NCBI GenBank assembly: GCA_043756885.1
Contig: JAYUQF010000146.1
Span: 1 to 40,560 of the forward strand
Direction of reading: 5' to 3'
DNA: 40,560 bases
From: Pseudomonadota bacterium
GTDB taxonomy: Bacteria > Pseudomonadota > Gammaproteobacteria > Ga0077536
Position 1 is the first letter of the stretch, and each line of letters opens with the position of its first letter. The notes beneath the pieces are model-generated. The model had not been told where the DNA came from, did no database searches, and saw nothing but the letters and a program-made list of their open reading frames with translations. Position numbers and translations under genes: made by a program. Shown here piece after piece: positions 3,535 through 37,319 of the stretch.

Positions 3535-3536
3535 TG

Positions 3537-4772: not shown

Positions 4773-4800
4773 GGTCTGACTTGGCAATCAGTTGCGCGCT

Positions 4801-4882
4801 GCAGGTCCGAATTCATTTGGACATTCGTCCCACGCAAATGTCTCGCCGCGTAGCGCAATGTCCGACTGAAGTCGGACCTGCG
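4801..4882. repeat. REP-like palindromic unit pair (inverted orientation) in the gmaS-mgdA spacer
   Basis: GCAGGTCCGAATTCATTTGGACA (4801-4823) and, on the opposite strand, GCAGGTCCGACTTCAGTCGGACA (4859-4881). Each can fold as a GTCCGA/TCGGAC stem-loop. The same unit recurs at 10119-10200. Confidence 0.8.
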
Positions 4883-4926
4883 ACGGACAAAAGAGCAGAC
4901 AGGCAAGAACAAGGAATTCACAGGCC

Positions 4927-6234: not shown

Positions 6235-6314
6235 GCTCAACTCCGTCAGGGGTGATTGTTGCGCCGCTTACACTCGCGCTTATACGCGCATGCACTCACA
6301 GCACTGCAAAGCAT

Positions 6315-7676
6315 TCAAAACTTGCTGTGGCCCGGTATCCAATCGGTGCCGGCCAAGGGTACTTTGGCCATAGCAGCCGCTTCGATAGTAAGCGCTACGA
6401 GATCTTCAGGCTCGAGGTTGTGCACATGACTCTTGCCGTTGGCACGGGCCAGAGTTTGAGTTTCAAGGGTCAGTACGCGCAAATAATTAGCGAGTCGTCG
6501 GCCCCCCAGTATCGGATCAAAACGCGCTGCGAGTGTTGCATCCTGAGTTGAGATGCCGCTGGGGTCACGGCCTTCGTGCCAGTCGTCGTAAAAACCTGCG
6601 GCGCTGCCCAGACGACGGTATTCATCCTCAAGGTCCGGGCTGTTATCACCCAGGGCGATGAGGGCCGCAACACCGATAGAGACCGCATCGGCGCCCATTG
6701 CAAGTGCCTTGGCGACATCGGCACCGGAACGTATACCACCGGACACGACCAACTGCACTTTGCGGTGCATGTCGAGTTCCTGCAGCGCTTCAACGGCCTG
6801 GCGCAGGGCCGGCAGGGTTGGAATGCCAACATGTTCAATGAATACATCCTGGGTCGCGGCCGTGCCGCCCTGCATGCCGTCCAGTACGATGACATCGGCG
6901 CCGGCTTTGACTGCCAGCGCGGTGTCGTAATAGGTGCGGGCCGCGCCGATCTTGATGTAGATCGGCTTTTCCCATTCGGTGATCTCGCGCAGTTCCTGAA
7001 TTTTTATCTTCAGATCATCGGGGCCCGTCCAATCGGGATGACGACAGGCACTGCGTTGATCAATGCCGGCCGGCAGATCACGCATTGCGGCGACACGCGC
7101 GGAGATCTTCTGGCCCAGCAGCATGCCACCACCACCCGGCTTGGCGCCCTGGCCGACCACCACTTCGATGGCATCAGCGCGGCGCAGATCGTCAGGATTG
7201 AGGCCATAACGTGAGGGCAGCACCTGGTAAACGAGCAGCTTCGAATGTTCACGCTCTTCGTGCGTCATGCCACCATCGCCGGTGGTGGTGCTGGTGCCGG
7301 CGATGCTGGCGCCACGGCCGAGCGCTTCTTTGGCGGGCCCGGACAGTGCACCAAAACTCATGCCGGCTATAGTGATAGGGATCTTGAGCTCGATAGGCTT
7401 TTTGGCAAAGCGGGTGCCGAGCGTAACGCTGGTATCGCAGCGTTCGCGATAACCTTCGAGCGGATAGCGCGACATGCTTGCGCCGAGAAACAGCAAATCA
7501 TCAAAATTCGGAATACTGCGCTTGGCACCGAAGCCACGAATGTCATAGATGCCCGTGCGCGCGGCGCGCTGGATCTCGGCGATCACGGTGCGCGGAAAGC
7601 TTGCCGATTCGCGTAAGCGCGATTGTAATTCTGCTTGCGCGAGCATCTCGCGATTGCGACGTCGCTTAGTAGGCAT
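6315..7676 (-). CDS. mgsC: FMN-binding glutamate synthase family protein (N-methylglutamate synthase subunit C)
   Basis: The GQGAKPGGGGMLLG motif is typical of the GltB FMN domain. The ATG at 7676 overlaps the mgsB stop by 11 nt. Confidence 0.88.
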   Translation of the reverse strand: MPTKRRRNREMLAQAELQSRLRESASFPRTVIAEIQRAARTGIYDIRGFGAKRSIPNFDDLLFLGASMSRYPLEGYRERCDTSVTLGTRFAKKPIELKIPITIAGMSFGALSGPAKEALGRGASIAGTSTTTGDGGMTHEEREHSKLLVYQVLPSRYGLNPDDLRRADAIEVVVGQGAKPGGGGMLLGQKISARVAAMRDLPAGIDQRSACRHPDWTGPDDLKIKIQELREITEWEKPIYIKIGAARTYYDTALAVKAGADVIVLDGMQGGTAATQDVFIEHVGIPTLPALRQAVEALQELDMHRKVQLVVSGGIRSGADVAKALAMGADAVSIGVAALIALGDNSPDLEDEYRRLGSAAGFYDDWHEGRDPSGISTQDATLAARFDPILGGRRLANYLRVLTLETQTLARANGKSHVHNLEPEDLVALTIEAAAMAKVPLAGTDWIPGHSKF

Positions 7677-8355
7677 CGGTATTGTCCACATTGAAGTGAT
7701 AAAGTTTTCGCGCTGAGCCAAAACGACGGAATTCTGACGCATCGGCGCCGCTCACGCCGGCTTCGACCAGCAGTTTGTCGAGCTCGATTTTATGTTTGTC
7801 CTTCATGGTCTTCTCCACGCAGTCGGCACCGAGCCCGGCGACGTTGCCGCGCACGTAAAGGCGCGCTTCGTAGAGCGAATCACCCAGCGCATCACCGGCG
7901 TCGCCGCAGATCACCAGGCGGCCCGATTGCGCCATAAAGGCGCTCATATGACCCACCGCGCCATGCACGACGATGTCCACGCCCTTCATGGAGATACCAC
8001 AACGGGAGCTGGCATTGCCTTCAATGATCAGCAAACCACCATGGGCAGTGGCGCCGGCATATTGTGAGGCGCTGCCAATCACGCGCACGATGCCGGACAT
8101 CATGTTTTCGCCCACCCCAGGGCCCGCATTGCCGCGTACGGTAATGCGGGCATATTTGTTCATACCGGCGCAGTAGTAGCCGACGTGGCCGTCTATATCG
8201 ACCAGCAGGGGCGCATCGACGCCCACCGCAAGGTTGTGCAGGCCGTTGGCGTTTTTGACTAACCACGTCGCGCTTTCTTCGCTGCCATTGAACTCATGCA
8301 GGGCGTGGTTGAGCTCGCGTGTAGTGCCGTGGGAGAGATCAAATTGGTGGACCAT
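7666..8355 (-). CDS. mgsB: GXGXG-motif (glutamate synthase C-terminal beta-helix-like) protein (N-methylglutamate synthase subunit B)
   Basis: Repeated Gly-rich beta-helix motifs (GNAGPGVGENMMSG, GDAGDALGDSLYEA). The ATG at 8355 lies 1 nt after the mgsA TGA (8357-8359). Confidence 0.85.
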   Translation of the reverse strand: MVHQFDLSHGTTRELNHALHEFNGSEESATWLVKNANGLHNLAVGVDAPLLVDIDGHVGYYCAGMNKYARITVRGNAGPGVGENMMSGIVRVIGSASQYAGATAHGGLLIIEGNASSRCGISMKGVDIVVHGAVGHMSAFMAQSGRLVICGDAGDALGDSLYEARLYVRGNVAGLGADCVEKTMKDKHKIELDKLLVEAGVSGADASEFRRFGSARKLYHFNVDNTDAY

Positions 8356-8356
8356 G

Positions 8357-9253
8357 TCAGTGGCTCCAACTGTAGATGCGGCCCGGCGCGGGCTCCCAGC
8401 ACTCGGCAAGTCCTGCGCCTGGCAATACCGCCAGGGCGCGGTACTCCGACGCCATTGCCACCCATTGATCGGTCTCGGCGATCACCGCCGGCTTGCACGC
8501 GATGGGGTCACGTAACACCGCAAAACCGTCGCGGGTGCCAATGGCAAAGGTGTAAAAGCCGTCCAGTTCAACGATGGCGCGATCGAGTGCAGCTTCCAGG
8601 CTATCGCCTTCCATCAAACGCCAGGTGAGAAAACCAGCGGCCACTTCACTGTCGTTGTCGGTGGTGAAGTGGATGCCACGCTTGCTGAGCTGGGTGCGCA
8701 GGCGGTTGTGGTTGGATAACGAGCCGTTATGCACCAGGCAGAGATCTTCGCCGGTTGAAAAAGGGTGCGAGTGTTCGGTCGTAACGGCGCTCTCGGTGGC
8801 CATGCGGGTATGGCCGAGCGCATGGGTACCGCTGAACTGTGAGACGCCAAAATTGTGCGCGACCTCGGCCGGCAGGCCCTTCTGCTTGTAGATTTCAATG
8901 GTGCTGCCGGAACTGTTAACGCGCAGGGCCGGGAAGTTGCCCCGGATCCAGCTCGTCAAGTCAGCACTGGCAGCATAGGCGCTGAGGATGGCGTGATTGC
9001 CCATCATCCCCAGGCCGGTGACACCCTGAAAGACATTGCGCACGGAATGCTCGAAGTCCGGCCAGGAAAACCACGGCACTGTAGCGAGCAGGGTGAGCTT
9101 GACCTGTCCCTCGGGCACCGGGTTGCGGTAAACCGCCACGCCCGCGCTGTCGGGGCCGCGATCGGTCATTTCCAGCAGCATTGGGGTCAGGTAGAAACCG
9201 AGCTGCGCTGCGAATTCTGGGGTCTTGGCAAACAGACCGACGATGCCACACAT
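8357..9253 (-). CDS. mgsA: class II (Ntn) glutamine amidotransferase (N-methylglutamate synthase subunit A)
   Basis: ORF 8357..9364 trimmed to the ATG at 9253 so that the protein starts MCGIVGLFAK. Cys must follow the initiator Met in Ntn amidotransferases. Confidence 0.88.
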   Translation of the reverse strand: MCGIVGLFAKTPEFAAQLGFYLTPMLLEMTDRGPDSAGVAVYRNPVPEGQVKLTLLATVPWFSWPDFEHSVRNVFQGVTGLGMMGNHAILSAYAASADLTSWIRGNFPALRVNSSGSTIEIYKQKGLPAEVAHNFGVSQFSGTHALGHTRMATESAVTTEHSHPFSTGEDLCLVHNGSLSNHNRLRTQLSKRGIHFTTDNDSEVAAGFLTWRLMEGDSLEAALDRAIVELDGFYTFAIGTRDGFAVLRDPIACKPAVIAETDQWVAMASEYRALAVLPGAGLAECWEPAPGRIYSWSH

Positions 9254-9374
9254 AGGTGTTTCCCGATCGGCTGGTCCGATCTTTTGATTTGAGCCTAAAC
9301 GCCTGAATTCGAGAGGGAGATTTCCGCGACCTGCGGCACTGGCGAGCCCAATCGCAAACCTCACTCGGAATCAA

Positions 9375-9416
9375 GAATTTCATTCGGGGAACAAAATTAT
9401 CCCAATATGAAAATTC
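9375..9416. promoter_or_regulatory. imperfect inverted repeat in the AT-rich regulator-mgsA spacer (candidate operator)
   Basis: GAATTTCAT (9375-9383) ... ATGAAAATTC (9407-9416) within the 172-bp spacer 9254-9425. No consensus promoter hexamers could be assigned confidently. Confidence 0.2.
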
Positions 9417-9425
9417 CAGCAAGGC

Positions 9426-10052
9426 TTAATCGGCGTCCTTCGCCCGACTCAAAACCGCGATCATTTTCACCGGCAGGCTGATTAATTCTTCCGGGCCATG
9501 GGCAGCCTCGGCGTCAAAAAACAATGAGTCGCCGGCTTTTAAGTGATAAGTCCCGCGGCCATGCCGATAGAGCACTTCGCCAGCGAGGATGTAGAGGAAC
9601 TCCACGCCGGTGTGCTGAAAGAGCGGAAAGACCTCAGATTTGTCGGTCAAGGTGATGAGATAGGGTTCAACCGTCAAATGACTGCGGATGTTATGGCCGA
9701 GCAGGCGGTATTCGTGCCCGGCGCGGGTGCCTGCCCGTTCAATGACCAAGCCCTCGCCGGCCCGCACATAGGCGCAGTCCCGTTGTTCTTCATATCTGCG
9801 AAAGAAAGCGGTGACCGGCACGTTCAAGGCCGCCGCAACTGCCGTGAGGGTGCTCAATGACGGCGAACTCACGCCGCGTTCGATTTTAGACAGCATACCG
9901 ACCGACAAGCCGGCGAGGTGCGCAACCTCAGCCATGGTGACATCAAGCTGTTTGCGAAATTCGCGCATCTGCGCGCCGATAGCCTCGGCCAGACGCCGTT
10001 CGTCAGCTTTCATAACGCCGGCGAGTGCGGGGGATTGTTCGGACTGTGACAT
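9426..10052 (-). CDS. XRE-family HTH transcriptional regulator with C-terminal cupin domain
   Basis: ORF 9426..10142 trimmed to the ATG at 10052 (MSQSEQSP...). HTH segment MAEVAHLAGLSVGMLSKIERGVSSPSLSTL; cupin segment GVEFLYILAGEVLYRHG...GDSLFFDAEAAHG. Confidence 0.88.
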   Translation of the reverse strand: MSQSEQSPALAGVMKADERRLAEAIGAQMREFRKQLDVTMAEVAHLAGLSVGMLSKIERGVSSPSLSTLTAVAAALNVPVTAFFRRYEEQRDCAYVRAGEGLVIERAGTRAGHEYRLLGHNIRSHLTVEPYLITLTDKSEVFPLFQHTGVEFLYILAGEVLYRHGRGTYHLKAGDSLFFDAEAAHGPEELISLPVKMIAVLSRAKDAD

Positions 10053-13826: not shown

Positions 13827-15044
13827 GTGGCAGCAATTGATCTCAATAACCTCTGGCGTCAGGACACACCGGGCAGCGCTGCCTGGCCACGTTCGCCGCA
13901 GCCCGCGAGCGCCAACAAATATTTCATGGTGTCGGCCGACTGCCACGTGCAGGAACCCAATGATTTTCTCAGTGCGCGCATGGATAAAAAATTCCAGGAC
14001 CGCCTGCCCGGTATTGTGTTGGGTGGCGACGGCAGCAAACTGCAGAAGAGCGAAGGTTTTCGCCCCATCCGCATCGGCAGTTTCACCCTCGAAGGCGAGG
14101 ATCTCGAACGCAGCTTGTCGGGTAAAACACCCGAGCAGCGTCTGGCGGCGCAGGCACGCGATGGCATTGACTGCGAGATCATGTTTCCCAACAAGGGTTT
14201 GACTATCTGGGCCACGCCGGACGTCGAATTCAGTCAAGCAATGTGTCGCGCTTACAACGACTGGGCGTGGGAAACGTTTGCCTCTCACAATGATCGCCTG
14301 GCGCCTATGGCCTGCATCGCGAGCGCTGACATCGCAGGGGCCATCCGTGAAGTGCAACGCGCCGCCAAGCGCGGCTTTCGGGGTTTATCGCTGCCATGTA
14401 AACCGGTGTGGGGTGCGCCCGATCACGAGCACGTCAACTACAACTTGCCGGTATTTGATCCGCTATGGGCTGCTGTGTGTGATTGTGATCTGCCCATCAC
14501 CTTTCACGTGTCGACCGGGCGCGACCCGCGTACTGCGCGCGGCAATGGTGGTGCGATTATCAATTACGCGGTGCATTCCCTGGCGCCGACCATGGAGCCG
14601 CTGGTGAATCTGTGTTCCGCGGGTGTCATCGAGCGTTTTCCTAAACTTGTTTTTGGCAGTATCGAAGCCGGCATCGGCTGGGTGCCATGGATGCTGACGG
14701 CCATGGACGAGGCCTATCACAAGCACCATATGTGGGTAAGACCCAAACTTAAAACATTGCCCAGCGATTATTTCCGCAGCAACGGTTTTGCGAGTTTTGG
14801 TGAAGATGCACCGGGTCTTGATCTGATGCGCTCCCATGGGCTGTGCAATAACTTTCTGTGGGCTAACGACTTTCCCCATCATGAAGGCACCTGGCCCCAT
14901 TCTGCGGCGGCGGTTGAACGCACCATGGGCGGGCTCGATGATGGTGAGCGGGCCAAAGTTCTTGGTTTGAATGCAGCGCGGATTTTTAAATTCGATATTC
15001 CGCAACGCTATCGCGATTTTGCCGACGTGGCAGCGCTGGCCTGA
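13827..15044 (+). CDS. amidohydrolase-2 (ACMSD/LigW-like metal-dependent hydrolase/decarboxylase) family protein
   Basis: GTG start with an AAGGGG Shine-Dalgarno sequence. VSADCHVQEPNDFL N-terminal metal-site motif, WANDFPHHEG near the C-terminus, 405 aa. Confidence 0.8.
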   Translation: MAAIDLNNLWRQDTPGSAAWPRSPQPASANKYFMVSADCHVQEPNDFLSARMDKKFQDRLPGIVLGGDGSKLQKSEGFRPIRIGSFTLEGEDLERSLSGKTPEQRLAAQARDGIDCEIMFPNKGLTIWATPDVEFSQAMCRAYNDWAWETFASHNDRLAPMACIASADIAGAIREVQRAAKRGFRGLSLPCKPVWGAPDHEHVNYNLPVFDPLWAAVCDCDLPITFHVSTGRDPRTARGNGGAIINYAVHSLAPTMEPLVNLCSAGVIERFPKLVFGSIEAGIGWVPWMLTAMDEAYHKHHMWVRPKLKTLPSDYFRSNGFASFGEDAPGLDLMRSHGLCNNFLWANDFPHHEGTWPHSAAAVERTMGGLDDGERAKVLGLNAARIFKFDIPQRYRDFADVAALA

Positions 15045-15047
15045 ACA

Positions 15048-16229
15048 TTGATAGCGCGTACCTTGCGCGGTCGCGCCGCGGTTGTTGGCATCGGCGAGAC
15101 CACCTACTACAAACGCGGGCAAGCGCCCACCGCTGAATTCAAGTTGGCACTGGAGGCCATCGTCACGGCTTGTGAAGACGCCGGTATTCACCCGCGGGAG
15201 ATCGACGGCTTTGCATCGTTCAGTAATGAGCGCAACGATCCGTCGCAGTTAAGTGCTGCGCTTGGTTGCCGCGAACTGCGTTATTCCACTATGCAGTGGG
15301 GCGGCGGCGGTGGTGGTGGCTCGGCCGCGATTGGCAACGCGGCAGCGGCCATCAACAGCGGCACGGCGGAGTGTGTGGTGGTATTTCGTGCCCTGGCCCA
15401 GGGCCAATTCGGCCGTTTTGGTCAGGGCCCGCAGGCCCTGGGTGTGAGTGGTCATGCGGCCCACACCGTGCCTTATGGTCTGATGTCGCCGGCGCAGATG
15501 TTTGCCATGAAGGTCAAGCGCTTCATGCATGATTATGGCGTAAGCCAGGATGCACTACGTGCGATCGCACTGGCCAGTTACCACCACGCGCAAAACAATC
15601 CGCGTGCCGTGATGTTCGGGCGGCCACTGGACGAGGCCAGCTACGATGCTTCGCGCTGGATCACCGAGCCTTTTCATCTCTATGACTGCTGTCTTGAAAA
15701 CGATGGTGCGGCGGCCATGATCCTGGTTAGTGCCGAACGTGCCAAAGACTTCAAACATGAGGCCTGTTATGTACTCGCGGCGGTGGCTGGCAGCGATCAT
15801 CGCGCCGGTGCAACCGTGCACAACGCGCCCGACTACGGCAGTGCAACGTTCAAAACTGTGGCGCCACGCTTGTATCGCATGGCCGGCCTCGGGCCCAGTG
15901 ACATCGATGTCCTGCAGAGCTATGAAAATTTCACCGGTGGTGTGCTGATGAGCATCGTTGAGCACGGCTTCTGCAAGGCGCAGGAGTGCAACGATTTTTT
16001 TAAGCTGGATAATCTGCTGGCACCCGATGGCGACCTGCCGCTCAATACCAGCGGAGGTAATCTCGCCGAGTGTTATATGCATGGCCTGGGTCTGAACATC
16101 GAAGCCGTGCGGCAGATCCGCGGCACCTCCACGGCGCAGGTCGCGCGTGTTGAGGTGTCGATGGTGACATCCGGGCCGATGGTCACCCCGGTCAGTAGTT
16201 GTATCTTCGGCAGCGAGGCGACTCTGTGA
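15048..16229 (+). CDS. thiolase-like (SCP2/lipid-transfer-type) protein lacking the nucleophilic Cys
   Basis: AAVVGIGETTYYKRG N-terminus and NTSGGNLAECYMHGLG C-terminal thiolase motif. The loop that normally carries the active-site Cys reads WGGGGGGGSAAIGNAAAAINSG (Gly7 encoded at 15300-15320). TTG start 3 nt after the amidohydrolase stop. Confidence 0.8.
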   Translation: MIARTLRGRAAVVGIGETTYYKRGQAPTAEFKLALEAIVTACEDAGIHPREIDGFASFSNERNDPSQLSAALGCRELRYSTMQWGGGGGGGSAAIGNAAAAINSGTAECVVVFRALAQGQFGRFGQGPQALGVSGHAAHTVPYGLMSPAQMFAMKVKRFMHDYGVSQDALRAIALASYHHAQNNPRAVMFGRPLDEASYDASRWITEPFHLYDCCLENDGAAAMILVSAERAKDFKHEACYVLAAVAGSDHRAGATVHNAPDYGSATFKTVAPRLYRMAGLGPSDIDVLQSYENFTGGVLMSIVEHGFCKAQECNDFFKLDNLLAPDGDLPLNTSGGNLAECYMHGLGLNIEAVRQIRGTSTAQVARVEVSMVTSGPMVTPVSSCIFGSEATL

Positions 16230-16663
16230 GCACGCCTTATCTCAAGCCCGGTTTGCCCATGCCCGTGGCCACTGATCTCGACCGTCCGTTCTGGGAAGGA
16301 TTGTGTGCGGGCCGATTGTTATTGCAGCGCTGTCGCGCCTGCCATCGTTTTCAGTGGGGCCCGGAGTGGATCTGCCATCGCTGTCTGAGCTTTGACTACG
16401 ACTATGTTGAAGTGCCGCCAGAAGGGCGCCTGTACAGCCATCAACGAGTCTGGCACCCGGTGCACCCAGCCCTTGCCACGCAGGGCGCTTATGTCATCGC
16501 ACTGGTTGAGATCCCCCACGCCGACAATATCCGCCTCGTGGGCAACTTGCTCGGCGATCCGCAACAGCCCTTGGTGATCGGTACAGAACTCGAGGCGGTG
16601 TTCGAGCAACATCCCCACGCCGATCCGCCGTTTGCATTGTTGCAGTGGCAAGTGCTGACATGA
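16226..16663 (+). CDS. Zn-ribbon/OB-fold DUF35-family protein (thiolase-like partner subunit)
   Basis: The GTG start overlaps the upstream stop (GTGA) and has a GAGG Shine-Dalgarno sequence. Four-Cys ribbon CRACHRFQWGPEWICHRC followed by an OB-fold-like region. Confidence 0.8.
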   Translation: MSTPYLKPGLPMPVATDLDRPFWEGLCAGRLLLQRCRACHRFQWGPEWICHRCLSFDYDYVEVPPEGRLYSHQRVWHPVHPALATQGAYVIALVEIPHADNIRLVGNLLGDPQQPLVIGTELEAVFEQHPHADPPFALLQWQVLT

Positions 16664-29518: not shown

Positions 29519-30310
29519 ATGGCCAAATCCGCCGTCCAAGTTTCGCTACGCTCGCAGCCAAGCGAGCCAATTTTTGTCTTCGGCGCCGATATGGATGGGG
29601 ATTTTTCGCGTGGATCGGCCGCGATCGCGCAGCGCTACTTCAACGCTGACACCACCGTCTGCAGCGGTGCCAGCGGTCATGCTTACGCCGTTCCCTACCG
29701 CGATTGCGACGGCAAGTTCTTAAGTTTTGGCGCGCTGGCGCCGCATATCACCGCCTTTCTAAGTCACGCACGGGCCAATCCACAACAAGTTTTCATGATC
29801 GCCCACTTTGGCTGTGAAAGCGGCGGCAGCGACATAACGAGTATGGTGCGCCACTTCAGTCATCTGCCAGCCAACTGTTTGCTGCCTGGTCCATGGGCCC
29901 GTCACCTCGACGCTAAAAGTGGCGTACGTCTTTTGATTTTCGACCCCTTTGCGCGCTTCCGCGAGCCCTATTGGCAGGACAAGCTTAAGCGCTATCTGGC
30001 GCTCAATGCCGACACCTGTAATGGCGCGCAAGTTGAAGTTGTCAGCTTCGGTGGTGCACGTTCGCTGGTTGCCAACGACATGGCCGCCAAACGCCTGGGA
30101 CTAAAACATCGAGTATTCGGGCCCAACGAGACCTTTTTTGGCAAACACGCCGAGCTCGCTGCGGAAATGAAGGCGATGTGGTACTCAACGCACTTTTTAT
30201 CGCTCTGTGATTTCAGCCAAACCGTGCAGCCCCAGCAGTTCCGCGTGACAACCGCCGCGATCAGCGCCGGCTTGGTGATAGACCAACTGGAAGTGAGCGG
30301 CGCACTCTGA
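29519..30310 (+). CDS. hypothetical two-domain protein: A1S_2505-type phage-associated domain fused to a DUF2493/SLOG-like domain
   Basis: N-terminal half IFVFGADMDGDFSRGSAAIAQRYF...GASGHAYAVPYRD...FMIAHFGCESGG...LPANCLLPGPW follows the FVFGSN..G.HG.GAA..A...G.SYAIPT...IGCG.AG...P.NV.LP pattern. C-terminal half VEVVSFGGARSLVANDMAAKRLGLKHRVFGPNETFFGKHAELAAEMKAM follows the DUF2493 pattern HGGA.GAD..A..WA...G......ADW..YGK.AG..RN..M. No Shine-Dalgarno sequence. Confidence 0.5.
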   Translation: MAKSAVQVSLRSQPSEPIFVFGADMDGDFSRGSAAIAQRYFNADTTVCSGASGHAYAVPYRDCDGKFLSFGALAPHITAFLSHARANPQQVFMIAHFGCESGGSDITSMVRHFSHLPANCLLPGPWARHLDAKSGVRLLIFDPFARFREPYWQDKLKRYLALNADTCNGAQVEVVSFGGARSLVANDMAAKRLGLKHRVFGPNETFFGKHAELAAEMKAMWYSTHFLSLCDFSQTVQPQQFRVTTAAISAGLVIDQLEVSGAL

Positions 30311-30322
30311 GTGCGCGTGGAT

Positions 30323-31186
30323 TTAATTCGTGCTGATGAAGTCCAGCAGCGCTCGGCATAACGCGCTGTCAGGCTCTTCAAAGCCCGCGATCGCGCTCAG
30401 GTGATTTTTGCCTGCTTGGGCAAACTCCGTCGCGTGATGACCGGCAGCTCGCCACGCCGCAACATAGTCGGCCGATTGGCGATGAAATTCTTGCGACTCA
30501 TCACCGCCCAGCGTGACCAATAGCGGCGGGCCGTGTGCAGGAATGTTGAAGAGCGGGCTTTGTCGTTCGATCAAATCGGCATCGAGTTGCAATTTGGCTT
30601 GCAGCCAGGAATGACGGAACGGTCGCAGATCAAACAGACCGCTGATCGGCATCCCCCCTTTGATGATATCGGCAGGCAGGCCGTACTCGTTGTGCCAGTC
30701 GGTGGCAGCGAGCATGCCGACCTGGTGCCCCCCCGCCGAATGACCAGCGACAAAGATGCGGGCTGGATCGCCGTTATATCGTGCGATGTGATGCGCCAGC
30801 CACGCCACTGTGGCCCGACTCTGGCGCGTGATTTCAGCGATGCTTACTTTTGGGCACAGCGAATAATTTGATATCACCACGGTGACGTCGTGGGCCACCG
30901 GACCACGCGCCACCAACGAGAACTCTTTACTCGACAGCATGCGCCAGTAGCCACCGTGCACGAACAACAGCACGGGTGCATGGGGTCTGCTGGCCGGAAA
31001 GATATCGAGGGTTTCGTCGCGGGTGGGGCCGAAGGGCACGTCCAATACACACGCCAGCTCAGCACGAGCGCGCGCGCTGCCACCAACGAACCACTCAACG
31101 TAGGGGCCCATGTCACCCACCGCGAGTTCGATGTTGTACTCGCTGTCGATGGCTTCCTGGCTGTCGAATTCGCGGTAAATTTTCAC
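30323..31186 (-). CDS. alpha/beta hydrolase (esterase / arylformamidase-like)
   Basis: The start of ORF 30323..31237 is a TTG. I prefer the GTG at 31186, which is preceded by CAGGAT. Oxyanion motif FVHGGYW and nucleophile elbow GHSAGGH. Confidence 0.85.
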   Translation of the reverse strand: MKIYREFDSQEAIDSEYNIELAVGDMGPYVEWFVGGSARARAELACVLDVPFGPTRDETLDIFPASRPHAPVLLFVHGGYWRMLSSKEFSLVARGPVAHDVTVVISNYSLCPKVSIAEITRQSRATVAWLAHHIARYNGDPARIFVAGHSAGGHQVGMLAATDWHNEYGLPADIIKGGMPISGLFDLRPFRHSWLQAKLQLDADLIERQSPLFNIPAHGPPLLVTLGGDESQEFHRQSADYVAAWRAAGHHATEFAQAGKNHLSAIAGFEEPDSALCRALLDFISTN

Positions 31187-31264
31187 GGCGTTATCCTGGG
31201 GTAGCTGTGCACGCGGGCGTCGCCACTGCGCGCCCAACGCGCGCAGCGGCGGCGATCAAAGCGC

Positions 31265-32305
31265 TTATTTGCGGAAAGCCGGAATGACGTCCTTGGCGAA
31301 CATCTCCATGCTGGAGCGGATGAGATGCGGCGCGAGGCCGGACATGGCCATACCACACACCAGATGAGTCACACGACCCCGTTTGACATAGTCAGCGATC
31401 AGCTCACGCACATCGGCAGGTGTACCAACCAGGGCTTCTTCGCCGAAGACATTAAACTGCTGCTTCTTGATGATCTCCTCAACTGAGGCAATACCCTCGA
31501 TGACTTTATCGTCGCCGGGTTTATCGTTGGCTTCGGCGAACCATTTTGCGTAACACGTCGCGGTGTAGTGCAAGGATTGTGCACACGACTCCCAGGCCTG
31601 CTCACGACTCTTGGCGACGTGTACCCAGCGTAGTTGGGCGGTCGAGTATTCCTGTGGATTACGACCAGCAGCGCTCAGGCAGGCATCATAGTGTTCAACC
31701 AGTGAAGGCGGGCCGACTACCTGGAAGTGAAAGCCCATTTTGGCCGCACGTTCAATCGCCTTGGGCGCGATCGCACCGATCCAGATCGGCGGGTGAGGGC
31801 GCTGCAAGGCTGGCGGTACGATGCGAATTTCTTTGAGTTGACTGAACTTGCCGTCGAAGGTCACTTCTTCATCGGACAGCAGGCGTTGGATCAAGGCGAT
31901 ACCTTCGTTCAGACGAGCGCCACGTTCGGTATGGGAGATCCCTTGGTCGGCAAACTCTTTACGGCGATAGCCCAAGCCTACACCGAGATCAAAACGACCA
32001 TTGGATAACAGATCGACCGTCGCCGTATCTTCGGCAATGCGCACTGGGTTGTGCAGCGGCAGCAAAATTAGAAACGTGCCGATTCGGATGCGCGAAGTGC
32101 GGGTTGCAACACCAGCGGCGATCGGCAACAACGAGGGCGAATAACCGTCGTCGACAAAATGATGTTCGGTCAGCCACGCATTGTCGTAGCCCATCGCTTC
32201 GGAATCGACAATCAAATCCATGTGGCTGCGGTACAGATCCTGCCAGGGCACGCGGTTAAAACTGGGATTGCGGAACGGCCACAGCAGGCCAAAGCGTAAA
32301 TTCAT
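31265..32305 (-). CDS. LLM-class (luciferase-like) flavin-dependent oxidoreductase
   Basis: 346 aa with a GAGGGAG Shine-Dalgarno sequence. MNLRFGLLWPF...GYDNAWLTEHHF is typical of the LLM N-terminus. Confidence 0.85.
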   Translation of the reverse strand: MNLRFGLLWPFRNPSFNRVPWQDLYRSHMDLIVDSEAMGYDNAWLTEHHFVDDGYSPSLLPIAAGVATRTSRIRIGTFLILLPLHNPVRIAEDTATVDLLSNGRFDLGVGLGYRRKEFADQGISHTERGARLNEGIALIQRLLSDEEVTFDGKFSQLKEIRIVPPALQRPHPPIWIGAIAPKAIERAAKMGFHFQVVGPPSLVEHYDACLSAAGRNPQEYSTAQLRWVHVAKSREQAWESCAQSLHYTATCYAKWFAEANDKPGDDKVIEGIASVEEIIKKQQFNVFGEEALVGTPADVRELIADYVKRGRVTHLVCGMAMSGLAPHLIRSSMEMFAKDVIPAFRK

Positions 32306-32406
32306 GATCGTGCTCCCTCTCGTTTTTTTTGCTTAACTGCGACGCGGGTCGCAGGCAGCTCAGTGGTAGTTGGCAGGCGTAGGCCAGCGCGGCCCGGCAG
32401 TGTGAT

Positions 32407-33375
32407 TCATCCCGCTGCGCGCGCCAACCGCTTTTCGAGCTGGCCTGCATGGCTGTGCCAAATCGCATCACTGCGCAAATCGATCTGCGCGCCACGCGCT
32501 AGTGCCGCCCGCCATGGAATGGGGCTGGGCAACAAACATAAGGTCAACACGTAGCGTGGTCCCCGTTGCGGCGTGATTCCGCTGTGCAGCACCCGCGCCG
32601 GCTGAAACAACACCGCATCACCCGCGCGGGGATGGTGGTGATAAGCCTCAAGCTCACGTTTGGCGAGGGTCGCCAGCTTGGTCAGCGAGTCACTGCGACG
32701 CTGGCCACGGGCGAACATGTAGCCGGTGCGTGCAACTGCCGCGCTGCCGGCGAGATCCAGATAGGAGGTGCCACCACCGTGTTCACGGTAGTCGTTCAGA
32801 TAAACCAGCAGTTTCAAATGTGAGCGCGGGCCCTGGTCACAATGCCAGCGAAATGAAACCGAAGCGGGTGCGGTGCTCGGCGCCGTGCGCGACAAGGTGT
32901 ACCAGTACACAAAATATTCGCTGCGGAAAAATTCCAGACAATGGCCATCAACTTCCGCACTCAGCGCACTGTCGAGCAGGCGCGTGATAAGCGCCGCATC
33001 AGTGAGCGCATAACCCTCAAGTTTGGCGGAATCGCGTTTGAGTTGCGCAATGTCTTCGGCGGCGCTGACCGCGGCCAGTAACTGCGTTGCTTGAGGTGCG
33101 GCCATGACCTCGAGCGACGCATAGCCCTGGGTGATGAGCGAGCCGGGTGTGACATTGGGCGGTAATGGCCGCGTGAGTCGTGTGCGGCAGTGGGCCTGCC
33201 ACGCTTCATAACCGCGCGCCCGATCAAATTCGTCAAAGACCCTTGTGACCCGGTCCGGGTCGAGGTCAGGTTCGAACCAGCGCTGGATTTTCCTCAGCAG
33301 GATGCCCGGTCCATGGCGGTTGAGAGGAATCAATGACTGGCCTCCAGCTTGGCCTCCGGCAGGCCGAACACCCAC
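32407..33375 (-). CDS. PhyH/2OG-Fe(II) oxygenase-like hypothetical protein (start uncertain: GTG at 33375 or TTG at 33333)
   Basis: HxD motif FRWHCDQG, then LKLLVYLNDYREHGGGTSYLD, and distal His/Arg GDAVLFQPARVLHSG...RYVLTL. No signal peptide. The TTG at 33333 overlaps the PQQ-gene stop (TTGA). Confidence 0.6.
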   Translation of the reverse strand: MGVRPAGGQAGGQSLIPLNRHGPGILLRKIQRWFEPDLDPDRVTRVFDEFDRARGYEAWQAHCRTRLTRPLPPNVTPGSLITQGYASLEVMAAPQATQLLAAVSAAEDIAQLKRDSAKLEGYALTDAALITRLLDSALSAEVDGHCLEFFRSEYFVYWYTLSRTAPSTAPASVSFRWHCDQGPRSHLKLLVYLNDYREHGGGTSYLDLAGSAAVARTGYMFARGQRRSDSLTKLATLAKRELEAYHHHPRAGDAVLFQPARVLHSGITPQRGPRYVLTLCLLPSPIPWRAALARGAQIDLRSDAIWHSHAGQLEKRLARAAG

Positions 33376-35084
33376 AACACCCCACCCTGTGGCACCTGCG
33401 TGCGGGTGCCAAAAGCCTGGTCGAGAAAGTCCTGTTTGCGTTGTGCGTCCACACCCCAGCCCGATTGCACCGCTACGTACTGTTTGCCATCAAGACTGTA
33501 GCTGGTAGGCACACCGACGATCCCGGAATTGGTCCGTTGTTGCCACAAAATTTTGCCATCCTTGGCATCGAAGGCACGGAAGTAACGGTCATTGGTGCCA
33601 CCAGCGAAAACCAGGCCACCGCCGGTGGTCAGCACCGGTCCCCAGTTGTGCGATTTGAACTTTGTTGTCCAGACTCTTTTGCCGGTTTTCATGTCCCAGG
33701 CCTGCAGTTCACCGATGTGTTCACGCGCTTCAGGTGTTGGCAGCACTTCAATCTTGGGAAACGGTACGCCCATGTAGAGTTCGCCACGACGGTATTTGGG
33801 TTTTTTATCGCCGGTGAAAGCGCTGCATAGATTTTCGTTAGCGGGGATATAAAGATAACCGGTGTCGGGGTTGTAGGCCGTCGGTGGCCAGTCTTTGCCA
33901 CCCCACAAACTCGGGCAGAACTCTGCCCTGCCGCCACTGTGCGGCACTTTGGTCGGGTCGTATTCAGGACGACCGGACTCCGCGTCAAGTTTGGTGAAAA
34001 CATTTTGTTTCACATAGGGTGTGCCGGCGACATAGCGGATGTCGTTGGCCGATCGCTCCAGCACCCATAAATAACCATCGCGGCCGGCGTGCACCAGACT
34101 CTTGATGGTTTTGCCGTTGCGCGGTAAGTCGATCAATAAAGGCGCGGCCACTTCGTCCCAATCCCACGAATCGTTCCAGTGATATTGGTGATGAGCGCGG
34201 ATCTTACCCGTACCCACATCGAGCGCGATGACCGAGGTTGCATACAGATTGTCGCCGGCACGCTGGTCGCCCATCCATGGCCCGGCGTTACCAGTGCCCC
34301 AGTAGGCGAGTTTGGTTTCAGGGTCGTAGCTGCCGGTCAGCCACACCGGCACTCCGCCGCGTTTCCAGGTTTCACCCGGCCAACTGTCGTGGCCCGGCTC
34401 GCCCGGGCCGGGCACGGTGAAAGTTTTCCACAGCGATTCCCCACTGGTGGCGTCGAAGGCTTGAATAAAACCGCGGATGCCAAATTCGCCGCCCGACACA
34501 CCGACCATGATTTTGCCATCCACCACCAGCGGTGCCATGGTCATGTAATAACCGGCCAGATAATTCTCGACGGGTTTCTGCCAGATCAGTGCGCCGGTAC
34601 GCGCGTCCAGCGCCACCAGGAAAGCATCAACAGTCGCGATATAAACACGGTCGCCAAATAAGGCCACCCCCCGATTGGTCGGGTGAAGCTGGAACAGATC
34701 GGCCGGCAGTTCACGACGATACCGCCACAGCAGATCGCCCGTGCGCGCATCTAATGCCAGCACTTGATCACGCGGGGTGGTAATGAACATGACGCCATCA
34801 TTAACGATGGGCGGCGCTTGATGGCCTTCGTCCACGCCAGTGGAAAAACTCCACAGCGGTTTTAACTGCGCGACGTTGCTGGTATTGATCTGCTGCAGCG
34901 GGCTGTAGCCCCAGCTGTCATAGGTACGGCGATACATGAGCCAGTTGCCGGGCTCGGGATGGGTAAGTCGTTGTGCGGTGACGGTGGAATAGGGCGGCGG
35001 CGGAACGGCCAGCGAGACCTTGTTTGTCAGTGCCAACAGCAGGCCCAGGCTCAGACATAAGTAGATTTTGCGCATGTTTATCAT
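33330..35084 (-). CDS. PQQ-dependent dehydrogenase, methanol/ethanol family (atypical: no vicinal Cys-Cys, lanthanide-type Asp signature)
   Basis: 584 aa. Sec leader MINMRKIYLCLSLGLLLALTNKVSLA. Eight-bladed-propeller W-motif repeats. GGEFGIRG, GTGNAGPW and DSWDWDEV align by eye to the Glu/Asn/Asp(+Asp) metal ligands of the MxaF/XoxF family. Confidence 0.88.
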   Translation of the reverse strand: MINMRKIYLCLSLGLLLALTNKVSLAVPPPPYSTVTAQRLTHPEPGNWLMYRRTYDSWGYSPLQQINTSNVAQLKPLWSFSTGVDEGHQAPPIVNDGVMFITTPRDQVLALDARTGDLLWRYRRELPADLFQLHPTNRGVALFGDRVYIATVDAFLVALDARTGALIWQKPVENYLAGYYMTMAPLVVDGKIMVGVSGGEFGIRGFIQAFDATSGESLWKTFTVPGPGEPGHDSWPGETWKRGGVPVWLTGSYDPETKLAYWGTGNAGPWMGDQRAGDNLYATSVIALDVGTGKIRAHHQYHWNDSWDWDEVAAPLLIDLPRNGKTIKSLVHAGRDGYLWVLERSANDIRYVAGTPYVKQNVFTKLDAESGRPEYDPTKVPHSGGRAEFCPSLWGGKDWPPTAYNPDTGYLYIPANENLCSAFTGDKKPKYRRGELYMGVPFPKIEVLPTPEAREHIGELQAWDMKTGKRVWTTKFKSHNWGPVLTTGGGLVFAGGTNDRYFRAFDAKDGKILWQQRTNSGIVGVPTSYSLDGKQYVAVQSGWGVDAQRKQDFLDQAFGTRTQVPQGGVLWVFGLPEAKLEASH

Positions 35085-35085
35085 C

Positions 35086-35688
35086 TCAAGTGGCAGGGGC
35101 GCCGAGCGCGCCGCTGAAGGGACCGGCGATGACGATTTGTTCGCCCACGCGTTTGAGTGGTAACGCCGGCAGCGCGCGCACCGTGGGGCCGCTTACGCGG
35201 ACCGCGCCTTTGGCCGGGTCGTAGGCCGACGAATGACAAGGGCAGACCAGGTGACGCGCGTCAGCCTGCCATTCACTGACCGCGCAGGCAGCGTGGGTGC
35301 AAATGGCCGAGTAGGCGACGATGCCGTCAACTGCGCGGGCGCGGGTGCTTTCATCCAGCGTGGCAGGGTCGAGACGCAGGACGAGGATTTGATTGAGTCG
35401 CGAGTTCTCGCGTGTGACACCGCTCACCGGGTCCTGCGGATAGACCGACAGCGGCGCGGCGTCGAGTTCCACGTCGGCCAGGGTCAGCGCGCGCGGGTCA
35501 TCCTCCCAGGAGGCAAAAGCCAGCACATCGCCGGGTGTGGCCGCCTCTTTGCTGGCATCGGCCTCGGCGGCAAAACCGCGCAGTGGCGCGCTCAGCCCGG
35601 CAGCCACCGCCGCGCATAACAGACGTCGCCGCGGCAGCGAGGCACAGTTGTCTTCTGCCGACCCAGTGGCTGGCGCTTCATTGTCCAT
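35086..35688 (-). CDS. Tat-exported Rieske [2Fe-2S] protein (bc1/arsenite-oxidase-type cluster boxes)
   Basis: Twin-arginine leader SLPRRRLLCAAVAAGLSAPLRGFA. Cluster boxes CTHAAC and CPCHSS. GAGGGGAG Shine-Dalgarno sequence. The stop lies 1 nt before the PQQ gene's ATG. Confidence 0.85.
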   Translation of the reverse strand: MDNEAPATGSAEDNCASLPRRRLLCAAVAAGLSAPLRGFAAEADASKEAATPGDVLAFASWEDDPRALTLADVELDAAPLSVYPQDPVSGVTRENSRLNQILVLRLDPATLDESTRARAVDGIVAYSAICTHAACAVSEWQADARHLVCPCHSSAYDPAKGAVRVSGPTVRALPALPLKRVGEQIVIAGPFSGALGAPAT

Positions 35689-35972
35689 CGATGTCTCCCC
35701 TCGTGCGCCGCCCGAGGTGGCGACGCGGGCGACAATGTGTCACTGCGGGTACGGTGCTGGCAAGTCGCAGGCAGATCCTGCATGGCCGCATGCAATCGTG
35801 CCGCGCGGCCCGTGGCTCAAGTGCCTGTCATCACAAACACGGTTCAAGGCCTCGGCGCAGGCCTTTGATCATCCCGTGGGCGCGCAGACAGGTGCACACG
35901 AATGCTGCACAATCGTGGCGTCGGCTTGCATCTCCCGGCACACACCCCTAACAATCAGCGATGGTCTTAGTT

Positions 35973-37319
35973 ATGACCAGCCAACGCCAACTGCACCGCG
36001 GCGCTTTCATGCGCCCGGTCAGTATCCACACCAGCGCCTGGCGTTACCCAGGCGGCTACGCGGACGCCAACTTCAATTTTCAGCATTACGTGCGTTTCAT
36101 CCAGACCCTTGAGCGCGGATGTTTCGACGCGTTTTTCATGGCCGATCACCTGGCGGTGCTAAACATGCCGATGGCGGCGCTGAAACGCAGTGCGACGGTC
36201 TCCTCTTTTGATCCCTTGACCTTGTTACCGGCGCTGGCTGCACTGACCTCACGCATCGGTCTTATCGCCACCGCTTCGACCAGTTATAACGAGCCTTATC
36301 ACGTGGCGCGCAGATTCGCCTCGCTTGACCACATAAGCGCAGGGCGCGCCGGCTGGAACGTGGTGACCTCGGCCAACCCCCACGAAGCACTCAACTTTGG
36401 TCGCGAGCAGCATCTTGATCATGCCGAGCGCTACAAACGCGCGCGCGAGTTTTACGCAGTGGTAACCGGCTTGTGGGACAGCTGGGCCGATGATGCTTTT
36501 ATTCGCGATGTGGAGCAGGGCGTGTATTTCGATCCGGCACGGTTGCACGTGCTCAACCACAAGGGCGATGATTTTGCCGTGCGTGGGCCGCTCAATGTCG
36601 CCCGCCCGATCCAGGGTTGGCCAGTGATCGTGCAGGCCGGCAGCTCTGAGGCCGGTCGTCAGCTTGCCGCTGAGACTGCCGAGATGGTGTTCTCAGCCGA
36701 AGTAACCCAGGCCTCGGCCCAGGCGTTTTATGCTGACGTGAAAGGGCGCATGGCAGCGTTTGGGCGTGACCCCGAGCATTTAAAAATCATGCCTGGTGCA
36801 TTTGTGGTGCTGGGCAGCTCGCTCGCCCAGGCCGAAGAACGCAAAGCCCACCTCGACGCCCTGGTGCATCCGGATTCCGGGATTTCGTCGTTATCGGTTC
36901 TATTGGGCTGCGATGCCAGTAACTTTGATCTCGATGGCCAACTGCCCGACATACCCGAGAGCAATGCCAGCCGCAGCAGCCGCGACAAACTGCTGAGCAT
37001 GGCACGTGAGCGCCGCATGACTGTGCGCCAGATGGCGCAGTGGGTGGGCGGTGCCTATGGCATTCTGGAGATGATCGGCACCCCAAATATGGTCGCCGAC
37101 CAGATGCAGGCCTGGCTTGAGGCCAAAGCTTGCGATGGTTTTAATGTGATGTTCCCTTACTTGCCGGTTGGCCTCGACGATTTTGTTGAGCAAGTGGTGC
37201 CTGAGCTGCAGCGGCGCGGCATTTTCCGTCGTGACTACCAGGGCCCTACCCTGCGCGACCACCTTGGTCTGCCACGGCCAGTTAACCGCTATTTTCCCTC
37301 ACCACGTTCCCCCGCCTGA
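35973..37319 (+). CDS. LLM-class flavin-dependent monooxygenase, NtaA/SnaA/DszA subfamily
   Basis: About 448 aa. LHRGAFMRPVSIHTSAWRYPG N-terminus and the size are typical of the NtaA/DszA group. The start is either 35961 or 35973. Confidence 0.85.
   Translation: MTSQRQLHRGAFMRPVSIHTSAWRYPGGYADANFNFQHYVRFIQTLERGCFDAFFMADHLAVLNMPMAALKRSATVSSFDPLTLLPALAALTSRIGLIATASTSYNEPYHVARRFASLDHISAGRAGWNVVTSANPHEALNFGREQHLDHAERYKRAREFYAVVTGLWDSWADDAFIRDVEQGVYFDPARLHVLNHKGDDFAVRGPLNVARPIQGWPVIVQAGSSEAGRQLAAETAEMVFSAEVTQASAQAFYADVKGRMAAFGRDPEHLKIMPGAFVVLGSSLAQAEERKAHLDALVHPDSGISSLSVLLGCDASNFDLDGQLPDIPESNASRSSRDKLLSMARERRMTVRQMAQWVGGAYGILEMIGTPNMVADQMQAWLEAKACDGFNVMFPYLPVGLDDFVEQVVPELQRRGIFRRDYQGPTLRDHLGLPRPVNRYFPSPRSPA

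Follow-up and report, generated by a model that had tools for sequence, protein, structure and literature searches.

A gene for a Rieske [2Fe-2S] protein and, directly behind it, a gene for a pyrroloquinoline quinone (PQQ) dehydrogenase of the methanol/ethanol family lie on the minus strand of contig JAYUQF010000146.1 (assembly GCA_043756885.1), a stretch of 40,560 nt from a gammaproteobacterium of the lineage Ga0077536 that was analysed over its whole length and is called the window below. The same pair of genes recurs across many bacterial phyla, in well over a hundred genomes and contigs, and its dehydrogenases belong to a clade in which a histidine stands at the site of the two vicinal cysteines of cytochrome-c-linked quinoproteins. 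Judged by their sequences, the two proteins very probably form a quinoprotein dehydrogenase system whose dedicated electron acceptor is of a new class. To our knowledge, the characterised quinoproteins of the methanol/ethanol family pass their electrons in every case to haem c, to azurin via a haem domain, or to quinone.

A preliminary description of this region (32407-35688) had proposed a module composed of the Rieske protein, a PQQ dehydrogenase that it called atypical and a 2-oxoglutarate (2OG) oxygenase-like protein, continued by a luciferase-like (LLM) oxidoreductase and an alpha/beta hydrolase. The open reading frames (ORFs), motifs and gene junctions that it listed are all present in the window sequence and in our ORF calls, and the five ORFs follow one another on the minus strand in this order. 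The first two genes have the following features:

35086-35688, minus strand: Rieske [2Fe-2S] protein of 200 amino acids (ORF, PF00355)
35569-35688, minus strand: twin-arginine leader of the Rieske protein, residues 1-40, ..SLPRRRLLCAAVAAGLSAPLRGFA/A; cleavage after GFA predicted by eye
35284-35301, minus strand: Rieske box I, C-T-H-A-A-C, residues 130-135, including the first disulfide cysteine
35218-35244, minus strand: Rieske box II, C-P-C-H-S-S-A-Y-D, residues 149-157, with Ser and Tyr at the positions of the bc1 hydrogen-bond donors
33330-35084, minus strand: PQQ dehydrogenase of the methanol/ethanol family, 584 amino acids (ORF, TIGR03075), a member of the 'His' clade that lacks Cys-Cys
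35007-35084, minus strand: Sec-type leader of the dehydrogenase, residues 1-26, MINMRKIYLCLSLGLLLALTNKVSLA/VPPPP, read by eye; without twin-arginine
34668-34685, minus strand: H-P-T-N-R-G of the dehydrogenase, residues 134-139, at the position of the vicinal Cys-Cys ('CCxxxNRG') in cytochrome-c-linked quinoproteins
34149-34166, minus strand: W-D-W-D-E-V of the dehydrogenase, residues 307-312; the first Asp is the catalytic base, the second occupies the lanthanide-coordinating position of XoxF and PedH

A single base (35085) separates the TGA of the Rieske gene from the ATG of the dehydrogenase gene. Assignments to twin-arginine translocation (Tat), Sec export or the cytoplasm were made here and below by reading the N-termini by eye.

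The conserved gene pair

When GTDB representative genomes, one for each species, were scanned with the dehydrogenase, 476 relatives emerged; as in each collection scanned, the best 80 matches were kept and examined, in this case with 63-93% identity to the window protein. All five window proteins were compared by tblastn with 160 loci, whose genes are crude ORF calls except where calls were supplied. A Rieske homologue was found directly upstream of the dehydrogenase gene, on the same strand and at less than 250 nt, in 77 of the 80 genomes. The gap between the two genes is 10-11 nt in the loci with proper gene calls and 1 nt in the window; in one locus (L069), a gene for a TonB-dependent receptor (6383-9568, minus strand) is inserted between them. 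The carriers include Gammaproteobacteria (Porticoccaceae, Pseudohongiellaceae/Pseudohongiella, SAR86, 'Multivorans'), 'Deltaproteobacteria', Rokubacteria/Methylomirabilota, Acidobacteriota (Bryobacterales, Holophagales, Thermoanaerobaculia), Myxococcota, Entotheonella and others.

The pair can also be approached from the other gene. We aligned 22 Rieske homologues (alignment A1) and scanned metagenomes with the result; of the 80 contigs kept, 69 have at least 250 nt of sequence downstream of the Rieske gene. The dehydrogenase follows immediately in 51 of these 69, with 54-89% identity to the window protein. The preliminary description had made its proposal depend on the Rieske gene being conserved together with this dehydrogenase clade, and from both sides this is what we observed.

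Some of the remaining contigs place the Rieske gene next to other enzymes. In a single example (L102, 4685-6551), it lies directly upstream of a GSDH-type PQQ sugar dehydrogenase (PF07995, E = 1e-124), that is, of a soluble glucose/sorbosone dehydrogenase from a PQQ enzyme family unrelated to the methanol/ethanol family. About ten near-identical contigs (L125 1991-5477, L130, L138 and others) carry it between the genes for a molybdenum dehydrogenase (a molybdenum-cofactor-binding subunit of the aldehyde oxidase/xanthine dehydrogenase type with a Tat signal) and a cytochrome c protein (275 amino acids, with a C-terminal cytochrome c domain), an arrangement suggestive of a periplasmic dehydrogenase chain with three components. 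A few divergent Rieske variants occur on their own. Because GSDH-type and molybdenum enzymes also adjoin Rieske genes, the Rieske family looks like a periplasmic electron-transfer protein for several dehydrogenases, with the PQQ clade as its main partner, and it may be a general periplasmic shuttle for several dehydrogenase types. The idea of a dedicated partner is upheld as far as co-conservation with the clade is concerned, but the Rieske family is not exclusive to it.

The other three genes of the proposed module behave differently. Across the 160 loci, only the Rieske and dehydrogenase genes travel together. The 2OG-like gene stands by the pair only in L001-L003 and in the metagenome contig L081, the LLM gene only in L001, L002 and L081, and the hydrolase gene only in L001 and L081; these loci are the closest relatives of the window, with dehydrogenases that are 89-93% identical. 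For this reason, the conserved unit comprises two genes, and neither a three-gene nor a five-gene module could be retained. Clustering of all locus ORFs revealed no other gene cluster in more than 20 of the 81 loci, and those that recur represent lineage-specific synteny.

No cytochrome c gene, MxaJ/XoxJ gene or other third gene is conserved around the pair in the 80 loci. We also considered a hidden cytochrome c acceptor, and a scan for CxxCH motifs in the window ORFs and in the neighbours of the pair gave lineage-specific hits only; in the Pseudohongiella group, a di-haem peroxidase of the CCP/MauG type is located two genes from the pair. No c-type cytochrome was found in the window, where the sole CxxCH in the called ORFs occurs at 16199-16663, beside a thiolase-like gene. 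The surrounding segment (13827-16663, plus strand) contains an amidohydrolase_2 gene, the thiolase-like gene and an ORF of 154 amino acids with CRACH; the last two look like a thiolase plus zinc-ribbon/OB-fold pair rather than a cytochrome.

Signatures of the two proteins

Residues 46-199 of the window Rieske protein align over the full length of the soluble Rieske domain of Thermus thermophilus (1NYK/3FOU, E = 5e-32). Weaker matches were obtained with actinobacterial bc-complex Rieske subunits, the arsenite oxidase subunit AioB (E = 4e-9) and b6f Rieske proteins. The boxes C-x-H-x-x-C and C-x-C-H with their disulfide cysteines, already pointed out in the preliminary description, hold without exception in alignment A1 and among the locus partners: C130, H132, C135, C149, C151 and H152 never change in A1, S154 is nearly invariant, and box I and box II are 19 residues apart in all partners for which the motif search found a true second box. 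The family pattern can be written as C-x-H-x-x-C / C-x-C-H-x-S-x-[FY]-[DE], where Phe is commoner than Tyr. The window protein has Tyr (CPCHSSAYD) and with it the signature C-P-C-H-x-S-x-Y of the high-potential type. In bc1, the Ser and Tyr following box II form hydrogen bonds to the cluster and raise its potential, and the cluster of the window protein may likewise have a fairly high potential.

With RRR at residues 20-22, about 14 hydrophobic residues and then G-F-A/A, the N-terminus of the window protein looks like a Tat leader that would be cleaved off. Alignment A1 shows no exchange of R20 or R21, and in 77 of the 79 locus partners a twin-arginine precedes a hydrophobic stretch. Behind the twin-arginine, the uncharged stretch is 18 residues long in the median and up to 22 in some homologues.

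None of the specific NCBIfam models is passed by the window Rieske protein. The best scores, all well below cutoff, came from the models for actinobacterial QcrA (86 bits, cutoff 275), AioB (TIGR02694, 47.7 bits, cutoff 95.65) and b6f, and the proteobacterial Rieske model gave 29 bits against a cutoff of 97. We rejected membership in bc1 or b6f complexes on the grounds of these scores and of the missing cytochrome b gene, which was found beside the pair neither in the window nor in the clustered loci. Membership in the AioB family was rejected as well, since its score is below cutoff and the adjoining gene encodes a PQQ propeller, not the molybdopterin large subunit AioA. In public entries, these Rieske genes carry generic names or the name 'ubiquinol-cytochrome c reductase iron-sulfur subunit', and the latter amounts to a misannotation.

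The dehydrogenase scores 582.4 bits with TIGR03075 (cutoff 480.05) and matches PF01011 with E = 3e-85. Its closest solved structure is 6ZCV/6ZCW (E = 1e-111), deposited as quinoprotein ethanol dehydrogenase, which we take to be the lanthanide-dependent PedH. The metal-binding Glu (GGE) and Asn (GTGN), the catalytic Asp, the PQQ-stacking Trp and the PQQ-binding Arg all align with their counterparts in 6ZCV, and these five residues of the PQQ/metal site are conserved in 81 clade members. At the site of the vicinal cysteines, the window protein reads ..QL-HPTNRG.. opposite ..PCCDVINRG.. in 6ZCV, so that Cys-Cys is absent; the label 'atypical' that the preliminary description gave to this enzyme is justified by this loss. 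WDWDEV aligns with WDFDGV of 6ZCV. The additional Asp two residues past the catalytic Asp (D-x-D), which marks the lanthanide type, is present and invariant in the clade. This signature suggests that the dehydrogenase is probably lanthanide-dependent.

Both deviations from 6ZCV are highly conserved. The motifs [LMFGI]-H-P-T-N-R-G and N-[DE]-[SA]-W-D-W-D-E-V occur in 81 of 81 aligned sequences. When metagenome copies are included (117 sequences, down to 57% identity), Cys-Cys is found in none and WDWDE in all 117; a His occupies the Cys-Cys site in all 104 motif-matched clade members. When 1.84 billion cluster representatives were searched exhaustively and the motifs extracted, the boundary of the clade fell at about 50% identity to the window protein. 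At or above this value, nearly every representative that covers the site shows H-x-T-x-R-G together with W-D-W-D-E, whereas most full-length representatives below it have Cys-Cys. The closest representative with Cys-Cys (P0364) has W-D-Y-D-E and a fused N-terminal cytochrome c domain. Paralogues encoded in the same loci provide an internal comparison: where the motif could be read, they keep A-C-C-D-V-N or something similar as well as W-D-Y-D-G, and a CxxCH haem motif is present in several further paralogues there.

Two members of the His clade from hypersaline metagenomes, forming a halophile subclade (P0361 and P0362, 55-58% identity, with H-P-T-N-R-G and W-D-W-D-E-V) have no Rieske neighbour. 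In P0362 (L168, 3404-6788), the gene directly upstream encodes a protein of 508 amino acids with a C-terminal cytochrome c domain (C-A-S-C-H). In P0361 (L167, 112-3339), a homologue of this protein (44% identity over 459 residues, with C-A-R-C-H) is fused to the N-terminus of the dehydrogenase. Their sequences support, as a Rosetta-stone argument, the view that the gene upstream of His-clade enzymes encodes a redox partner: a cytochrome c protein sits in the upstream slot and has once become fused, so the slot would be that of the redox partner, which is the Rieske protein in the main clade. This was the only fusion found; there was no natural fusion of Rieske protein and dehydrogenase, and some apparently long Rieske-dehydrogenase ORFs in the crude calls proved to be frame artefacts of GC-rich DNA. 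The partner of P0361/P0362, of about 500 amino acids, consists of a propeller-like domain, a long acidic linker rich in Gln and Asp, and the cytochrome c domain; its N-terminal domain has no Pfam match. In another clade without Cys-Cys (P0376, F-H-P-N-N-R-G), a small cytochrome c gene is located downstream.

Proposed electron transfer from PQQ to the Rieske cluster

We propose that the unit consists of a Tat-exported, probably soluble Rieske protein of the bc1/Thermus type and a Sec-exported PQQ dehydrogenase, made from translationally coupled genes. The Rieske protein would be folded and loaded with its cluster before Tat export. In the periplasm, the dehydrogenase, whose active site probably holds a lanthanide, would oxidise an alcohol or aldehyde, and PQQH2 would be re-oxidised in two one-electron steps by the Rieske cluster. 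The Rieske protein would thereby stand in for the cytochrome cL, XoxG, c550 or fused haem domain of other quinoproteins, and it would hand the electrons to general periplasmic carriers (a cytochrome c or cupredoxin encoded elsewhere) and from there to a terminal oxidase. Enzyme-bound PQQ/PQQH2 has a potential near +90 mV, while Rieske clusters lie near +150 mV in Thermus and near +300 mV in bc1 with Ser and Tyr; electron transfer from PQQH2 to the Rieske protein is thermodynamically plausible. The usual reaction of Rieske clusters is the oxidation of a quinol with coupled transfer of proton and electron; PQQH2 is itself a quinol, and a direct reaction between the two would therefore be chemically natural, if speculative.

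On the evidence of gene order and motifs, we consider it highly likely that the Rieske protein is the acceptor in one form or the other, as a diffusible or unspecified partner or as a permanent subunit. That it acts as the physiological primary acceptor in the first of these forms appears rather probable. More tentatively, it is quite possible that we are dealing with a widespread and hitherto unrecognised class of quinoproteins with a soluble Rieske protein of the bc1 type as primary oxidant of PQQH2, in which an exposed histidine of the cluster takes up the electron together with a proton, as at the Qo site of the bc1 complex, and the invariant histidine of the dehydrogenase lies on the route; these enzymes would probably depend on lanthanides and be common in uncultured marine, freshwater and soil bacteria.

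Several points weigh against a Rieske acceptor. A functional link follows from adjacency, but direct electron transfer does not. Two of the 80 genomes (L049 and L058) have no Rieske gene in the 10 kb upstream of the dehydrogenase. The halophile subclade discussed above combines the His-clade motifs with a cytochrome c partner, and the replacement of Cys-Cys by His is therefore not strictly tied to a Rieske acceptor; loss of the cysteines does not by itself require such a partner. No PQQ-biosynthesis domain was detected among the scanned ORFs of the window, although pqq genes could lie elsewhere in the genome; this agrees with the preliminary description, which had seen neither a pqq gene nor an exported c-type cytochrome in the window, as do our CxxCH scans of the window ORFs. 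The correlation between the distance matrices of the two proteins (Mantel r 0.90, a value reached in 0 of 999 permutations; Spearman only 0.47) speaks for the pairing in so far as it is compatible with joint inheritance and transfer; shared organismal phylogeny explains it in part and inflates the value, and we gave it little weight for that reason. The Rieske protein evolves faster than the dehydrogenase (median p-distance 0.55 versus 0.34).

In a variant of this proposal, the Rieske protein is a permanent small subunit of a heterodimer resembling AioAB, in which electrons would pass from PQQ to the [2Fe-2S] cluster inside the complex and then to a soluble cytochrome or cupredoxin. Gaps of 1-11 nt and a tight coupling of the genes that suggests equimolar synthesis would suit such a complex, as would the conserved order and adjacency and the AioB-type Rieske proteins among the sequence matches. 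However, AioA travels with AioB via Tat, whereas the dehydrogenase possesses a Sec leader of its own and would therefore be exported separately and unfolded. In addition, the Rieske family apparently serves other enzymes too. We regard a permanent subunit as unlikely, while seeing in it a serious contender.

It seems very unlikely that the Rieske protein keeps its Tat leader as an anchor in a membrane complex, with a cytochrome b encoded elsewhere, so that the dehydrogenase would feed a bc-like complex or the quinone pool. The closest sequence relatives are the bc-complex Rieske subunits of Thermus and actinobacteria, whose leaders are retained as anchors, and some homologues have an uncharged stretch as long as 22 residues. 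Against this, the hydrophobic stretch of the window protein spans only about 14 residues, most leaders end in a small-x-small pattern and are rich in Pro, Gly and Ser, and the neighbourhood of the pair, in the window and in the clustered loci, offers no cytochrome b.

Hardly any weight can be given to the possibility that adjacency reflects co-regulation or a role outside electron transfer (sensing, cofactor or metal handling, protection) with a cytochrome c elsewhere, or that the propeller is 'empty' and free of PQQ: a subgroup of the His clade does use cytochrome c, no pqq genes were seen in the window, and quinoprotein-like families from genomes without PQQ synthesis exist (the dehydrogenase reaches 386 bits with one quinoprotein-like family, TIGR04528, at a cutoff of 650), but all PQQ and metal ligands are invariant in the clade, as are all ligands of the Rieske cluster, the gene order is kept across phyla while other synteny is lost, and the sister group has a cytochrome c domain in the same slot.

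A Rieske acceptor, if true, would be a new solution to the re-oxidation of PQQH2 and would tie the loss of Cys-Cys to the gain of an iron-sulfur partner. The pairing bears on the long-debated role of the disulfide next to PQQ in the exit of electrons. Since the clade is abundant in uncultured bacteria of ocean, stream and soil and carries the lanthanide signature, it is also relevant to estimates of lanthanide-dependent metabolism in nature. With carriers such as SAR86, Porticoccaceae, Pseudohongiella, Rokubacteria, Acidobacteriota and Entotheonella, it would represent a sizeable and overlooked entry of electrons from alcohols and aldehydes into respiration.

Neighbouring genes and known systems

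Downstream of the pair, the window contains three further genes on the same strand:

32407-33333 (to 33375 from a GTG start), minus strand: 2OG/Fe(II) oxygenase-like protein of the PhyH type, 308 amino acids from TTG; no leader, read by eye
31265-32305, minus strand: luciferase-like (LLM) oxidoreductase (PF00296, E = 1e-59), a lineage-specific neighbour
30323-31237, minus strand: alpha/beta hydrolase resembling esterases of the hormone-sensitive-lipase type, a lineage-specific neighbour

The TGA of the dehydrogenase gene overlaps the TTG at 33333 (TTGA, a four-base overlap), which is the likely start of the 2OG-like gene because its homologues have 303-309 amino acids and begin at this position. 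The next gene, LLM, follows after 101 nt. A scan of region 30000-36200 gave 0 promoter-like sites and 8 terminator-like sites, the latter against 6.6 expected.

The 2OG-like protein (WHCD...VLHSG) just passes PF13640 (2OG-FeII_Oxy_3; 27.3 bits, cutoff 27). The iron triad and the 2OG-binding Arg, H164-x-D166...H250...R260, are invariant in its homologues. An AlphaFold2 model (mean predicted local distance difference test score, pLDDT, 92) has its best Foldseek matches in SnoK/SnoN, EctD, GriE, PtlH and AndA (E = 6e-9 to 2e-7, TM score 0.42-0.49), which are PhyH-type 2OG oxygenases of secondary and compatible-solute metabolism. In this model, the protein has the double-stranded beta-helix of the superfamily. 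Motif and structural matches make 'PhyH-like', as the preliminary description put it, a fair label. Homologues with 73% and 65% identity were found in unrelated contexts without a Rieske gene or PQQ enzyme, in Panacagrimonas among cell-envelope glycan genes. From its distribution, the 2OG-like gene is a lineage-specific passenger of the pair.

On the other side, a gene for an FMN-dependent (flavin mononucleotide) monooxygenase of the NtaA/DmoA family (35961-37319, plus strand; TIGR03860, 571 bits) is divergent from the Rieske gene, across an intergenic region of 272 nt. Its synteny with the pair does not extend to other loci; in L003, HDOD and GST genes take its place. Between the hydrolase gene and a dehydratase-like gene lies an ORF of 263 amino acids (29519-30310, plus strand) that matches the N-terminal domain of the 'A1S_2505 family phage non-structural protein' (NCBIfam, E = 4e-22) and has counterparts with 81-89% identity in L001 and L002.

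Further away (344-9364, minus strand), the window contains a gene set that resembles the N-methylglutamate pathway of methylamine use: a SoxA-like/GCV_T fusion, a DAO oxidoreductase, a glutamine-synthetase-like gene of the gmaS type and Glu_synthase/GXGXG/GATase genes of the mgsCBA type. In loci of a related lineage (L165/L166, 9024-13355), such genes, 64-85% identical, directly adjoin the pair. They are absent from the other 80 genome loci, and we discarded a general link of the pair to methylamine metabolism.

Other lineages have companions of their own. In the L033-L061 group (Pseudohongiella/Pseudomonadales type), the pair is followed by a small protein of the glyoxalase/VOC family, with a twin-arginine N-terminus by eye, and then, on the opposite strand, by the di-haem CCP/MauG peroxidase and a YtkA-like protein; this block occurs in about 17-20 loci. 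Genes for TonB-dependent receptors adjoin the pair upstream of the Rieske gene in L028-L036 and L057, are also present in L058, and are divergent in Porticoccaceae. As the dehydrogenase has the lanthanide-type Asp, these receptors could be linked to lanthanide uptake.

The preliminary description was aware of no characterisation of a Rieske protein paired with a PQQ dehydrogenase, and our full-text literature searches, which covered sources outside subscription journals, found no paper describing such a partner. The only precedent that we came across for an iron-sulfur centre working with a PQQ-dependent alcohol dehydrogenase (ADH) is the membrane ADH of Gluconacetobacter diazotrophicus, reported to have a [2Fe-2S] cluster in its catalytic subunit (Gomez-Manzo et al. 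2010, as cited in PMC4307304). According to that citation, the cluster is part of the catalytic subunit, whereas we observe a separate Rieske protein. PQQ dehydrogenase homologues without the disulfide motif, some of them with D-x-D, have been described in heterotrophic marine Thaumarchaeota (PMC7300363; discussed in PMC11845868). For their acceptor, blue copper proteins or quinone have been proposed rather than cytochrome c (PMC7300363; PMC11845868). They belong to a different lineage, and the describing paper does not mention Rieske proteins.

The soluble Rieske domain of Thermus (1NYK, 3FOU) resembles the window Rieske protein over its full length, in its boxes, in their spacing and in its disulfide cysteines. 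It differs in having CPCHGGVY, with Gly, where the window protein has CPCHSSAY, with Ser, and in being a subunit of a cytochrome bc complex, whereas no cytochrome b gene adjoins the Rieske family described here in the window or in the clustered loci.

Arsenite oxidase (AioAB) is likewise a periplasmic oxidoreductase that is encoded by adjoining genes and releases its electrons through a bc1-type Rieske protein with a Tat signal and disulfide cysteines, with a soluble cytochrome c or azurin as onward acceptor. Its catalytic subunit, however, contains molybdopterin and a [3Fe-4S] cluster, whereas the enzyme described here is a PQQ propeller that would be exported alone by Sec. The window Rieske protein is also much closer to the Thermus type than to AioB.

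Like the XoxF-XoxG-XoxJ and MxaFI-MxaG systems, the pair combines a periplasmic PQQ enzyme with a putative dedicated one-electron acceptor encoded beside it, and XoxF shares the lanthanide-type Asp. In those systems, the acceptor is a c-type cytochrome encoded downstream, whereas here it would be a [2Fe-2S] Rieske protein encoded upstream, and the pair has neither a XoxJ/MxaJ-like gene nor a small subunit. Unlike the His clade, the XoxF-like paralogues of these loci have retained 'ACCDVN' and 'WDYDG'. Quinohaemoprotein ADHs of types II and III resemble the pair in that a PQQ-ADH has its first acceptor built in or tightly associated; they employ haem c domains or subunits for this and, in contrast to the His clade, have kept Cys-Cys.

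The closest known relatives of the dehydrogenase are the lanthanide-dependent type I quinoprotein ethanol dehydrogenases PedH/ExaF (6ZCV/6ZCW), which have cytochrome c550 as acceptor. They have in common with it the TIGR03075 family, the eight-bladed propeller, a Sec leader and a periplasmic location, the PQQ/metal-site residues Glu, Asn, Asp, Arg and Trp, and D-x-D with its extra Asp. PedH and ExaF possess Cys-Cys and W-D-F/Y-D-G, whereas the His clade, split from them at about 50% identity, has His-Pro-Thr and W-D-W-D-E and, instead of a neighbouring cytochrome c gene, a gene for a Tat-type Rieske protein directly upstream.

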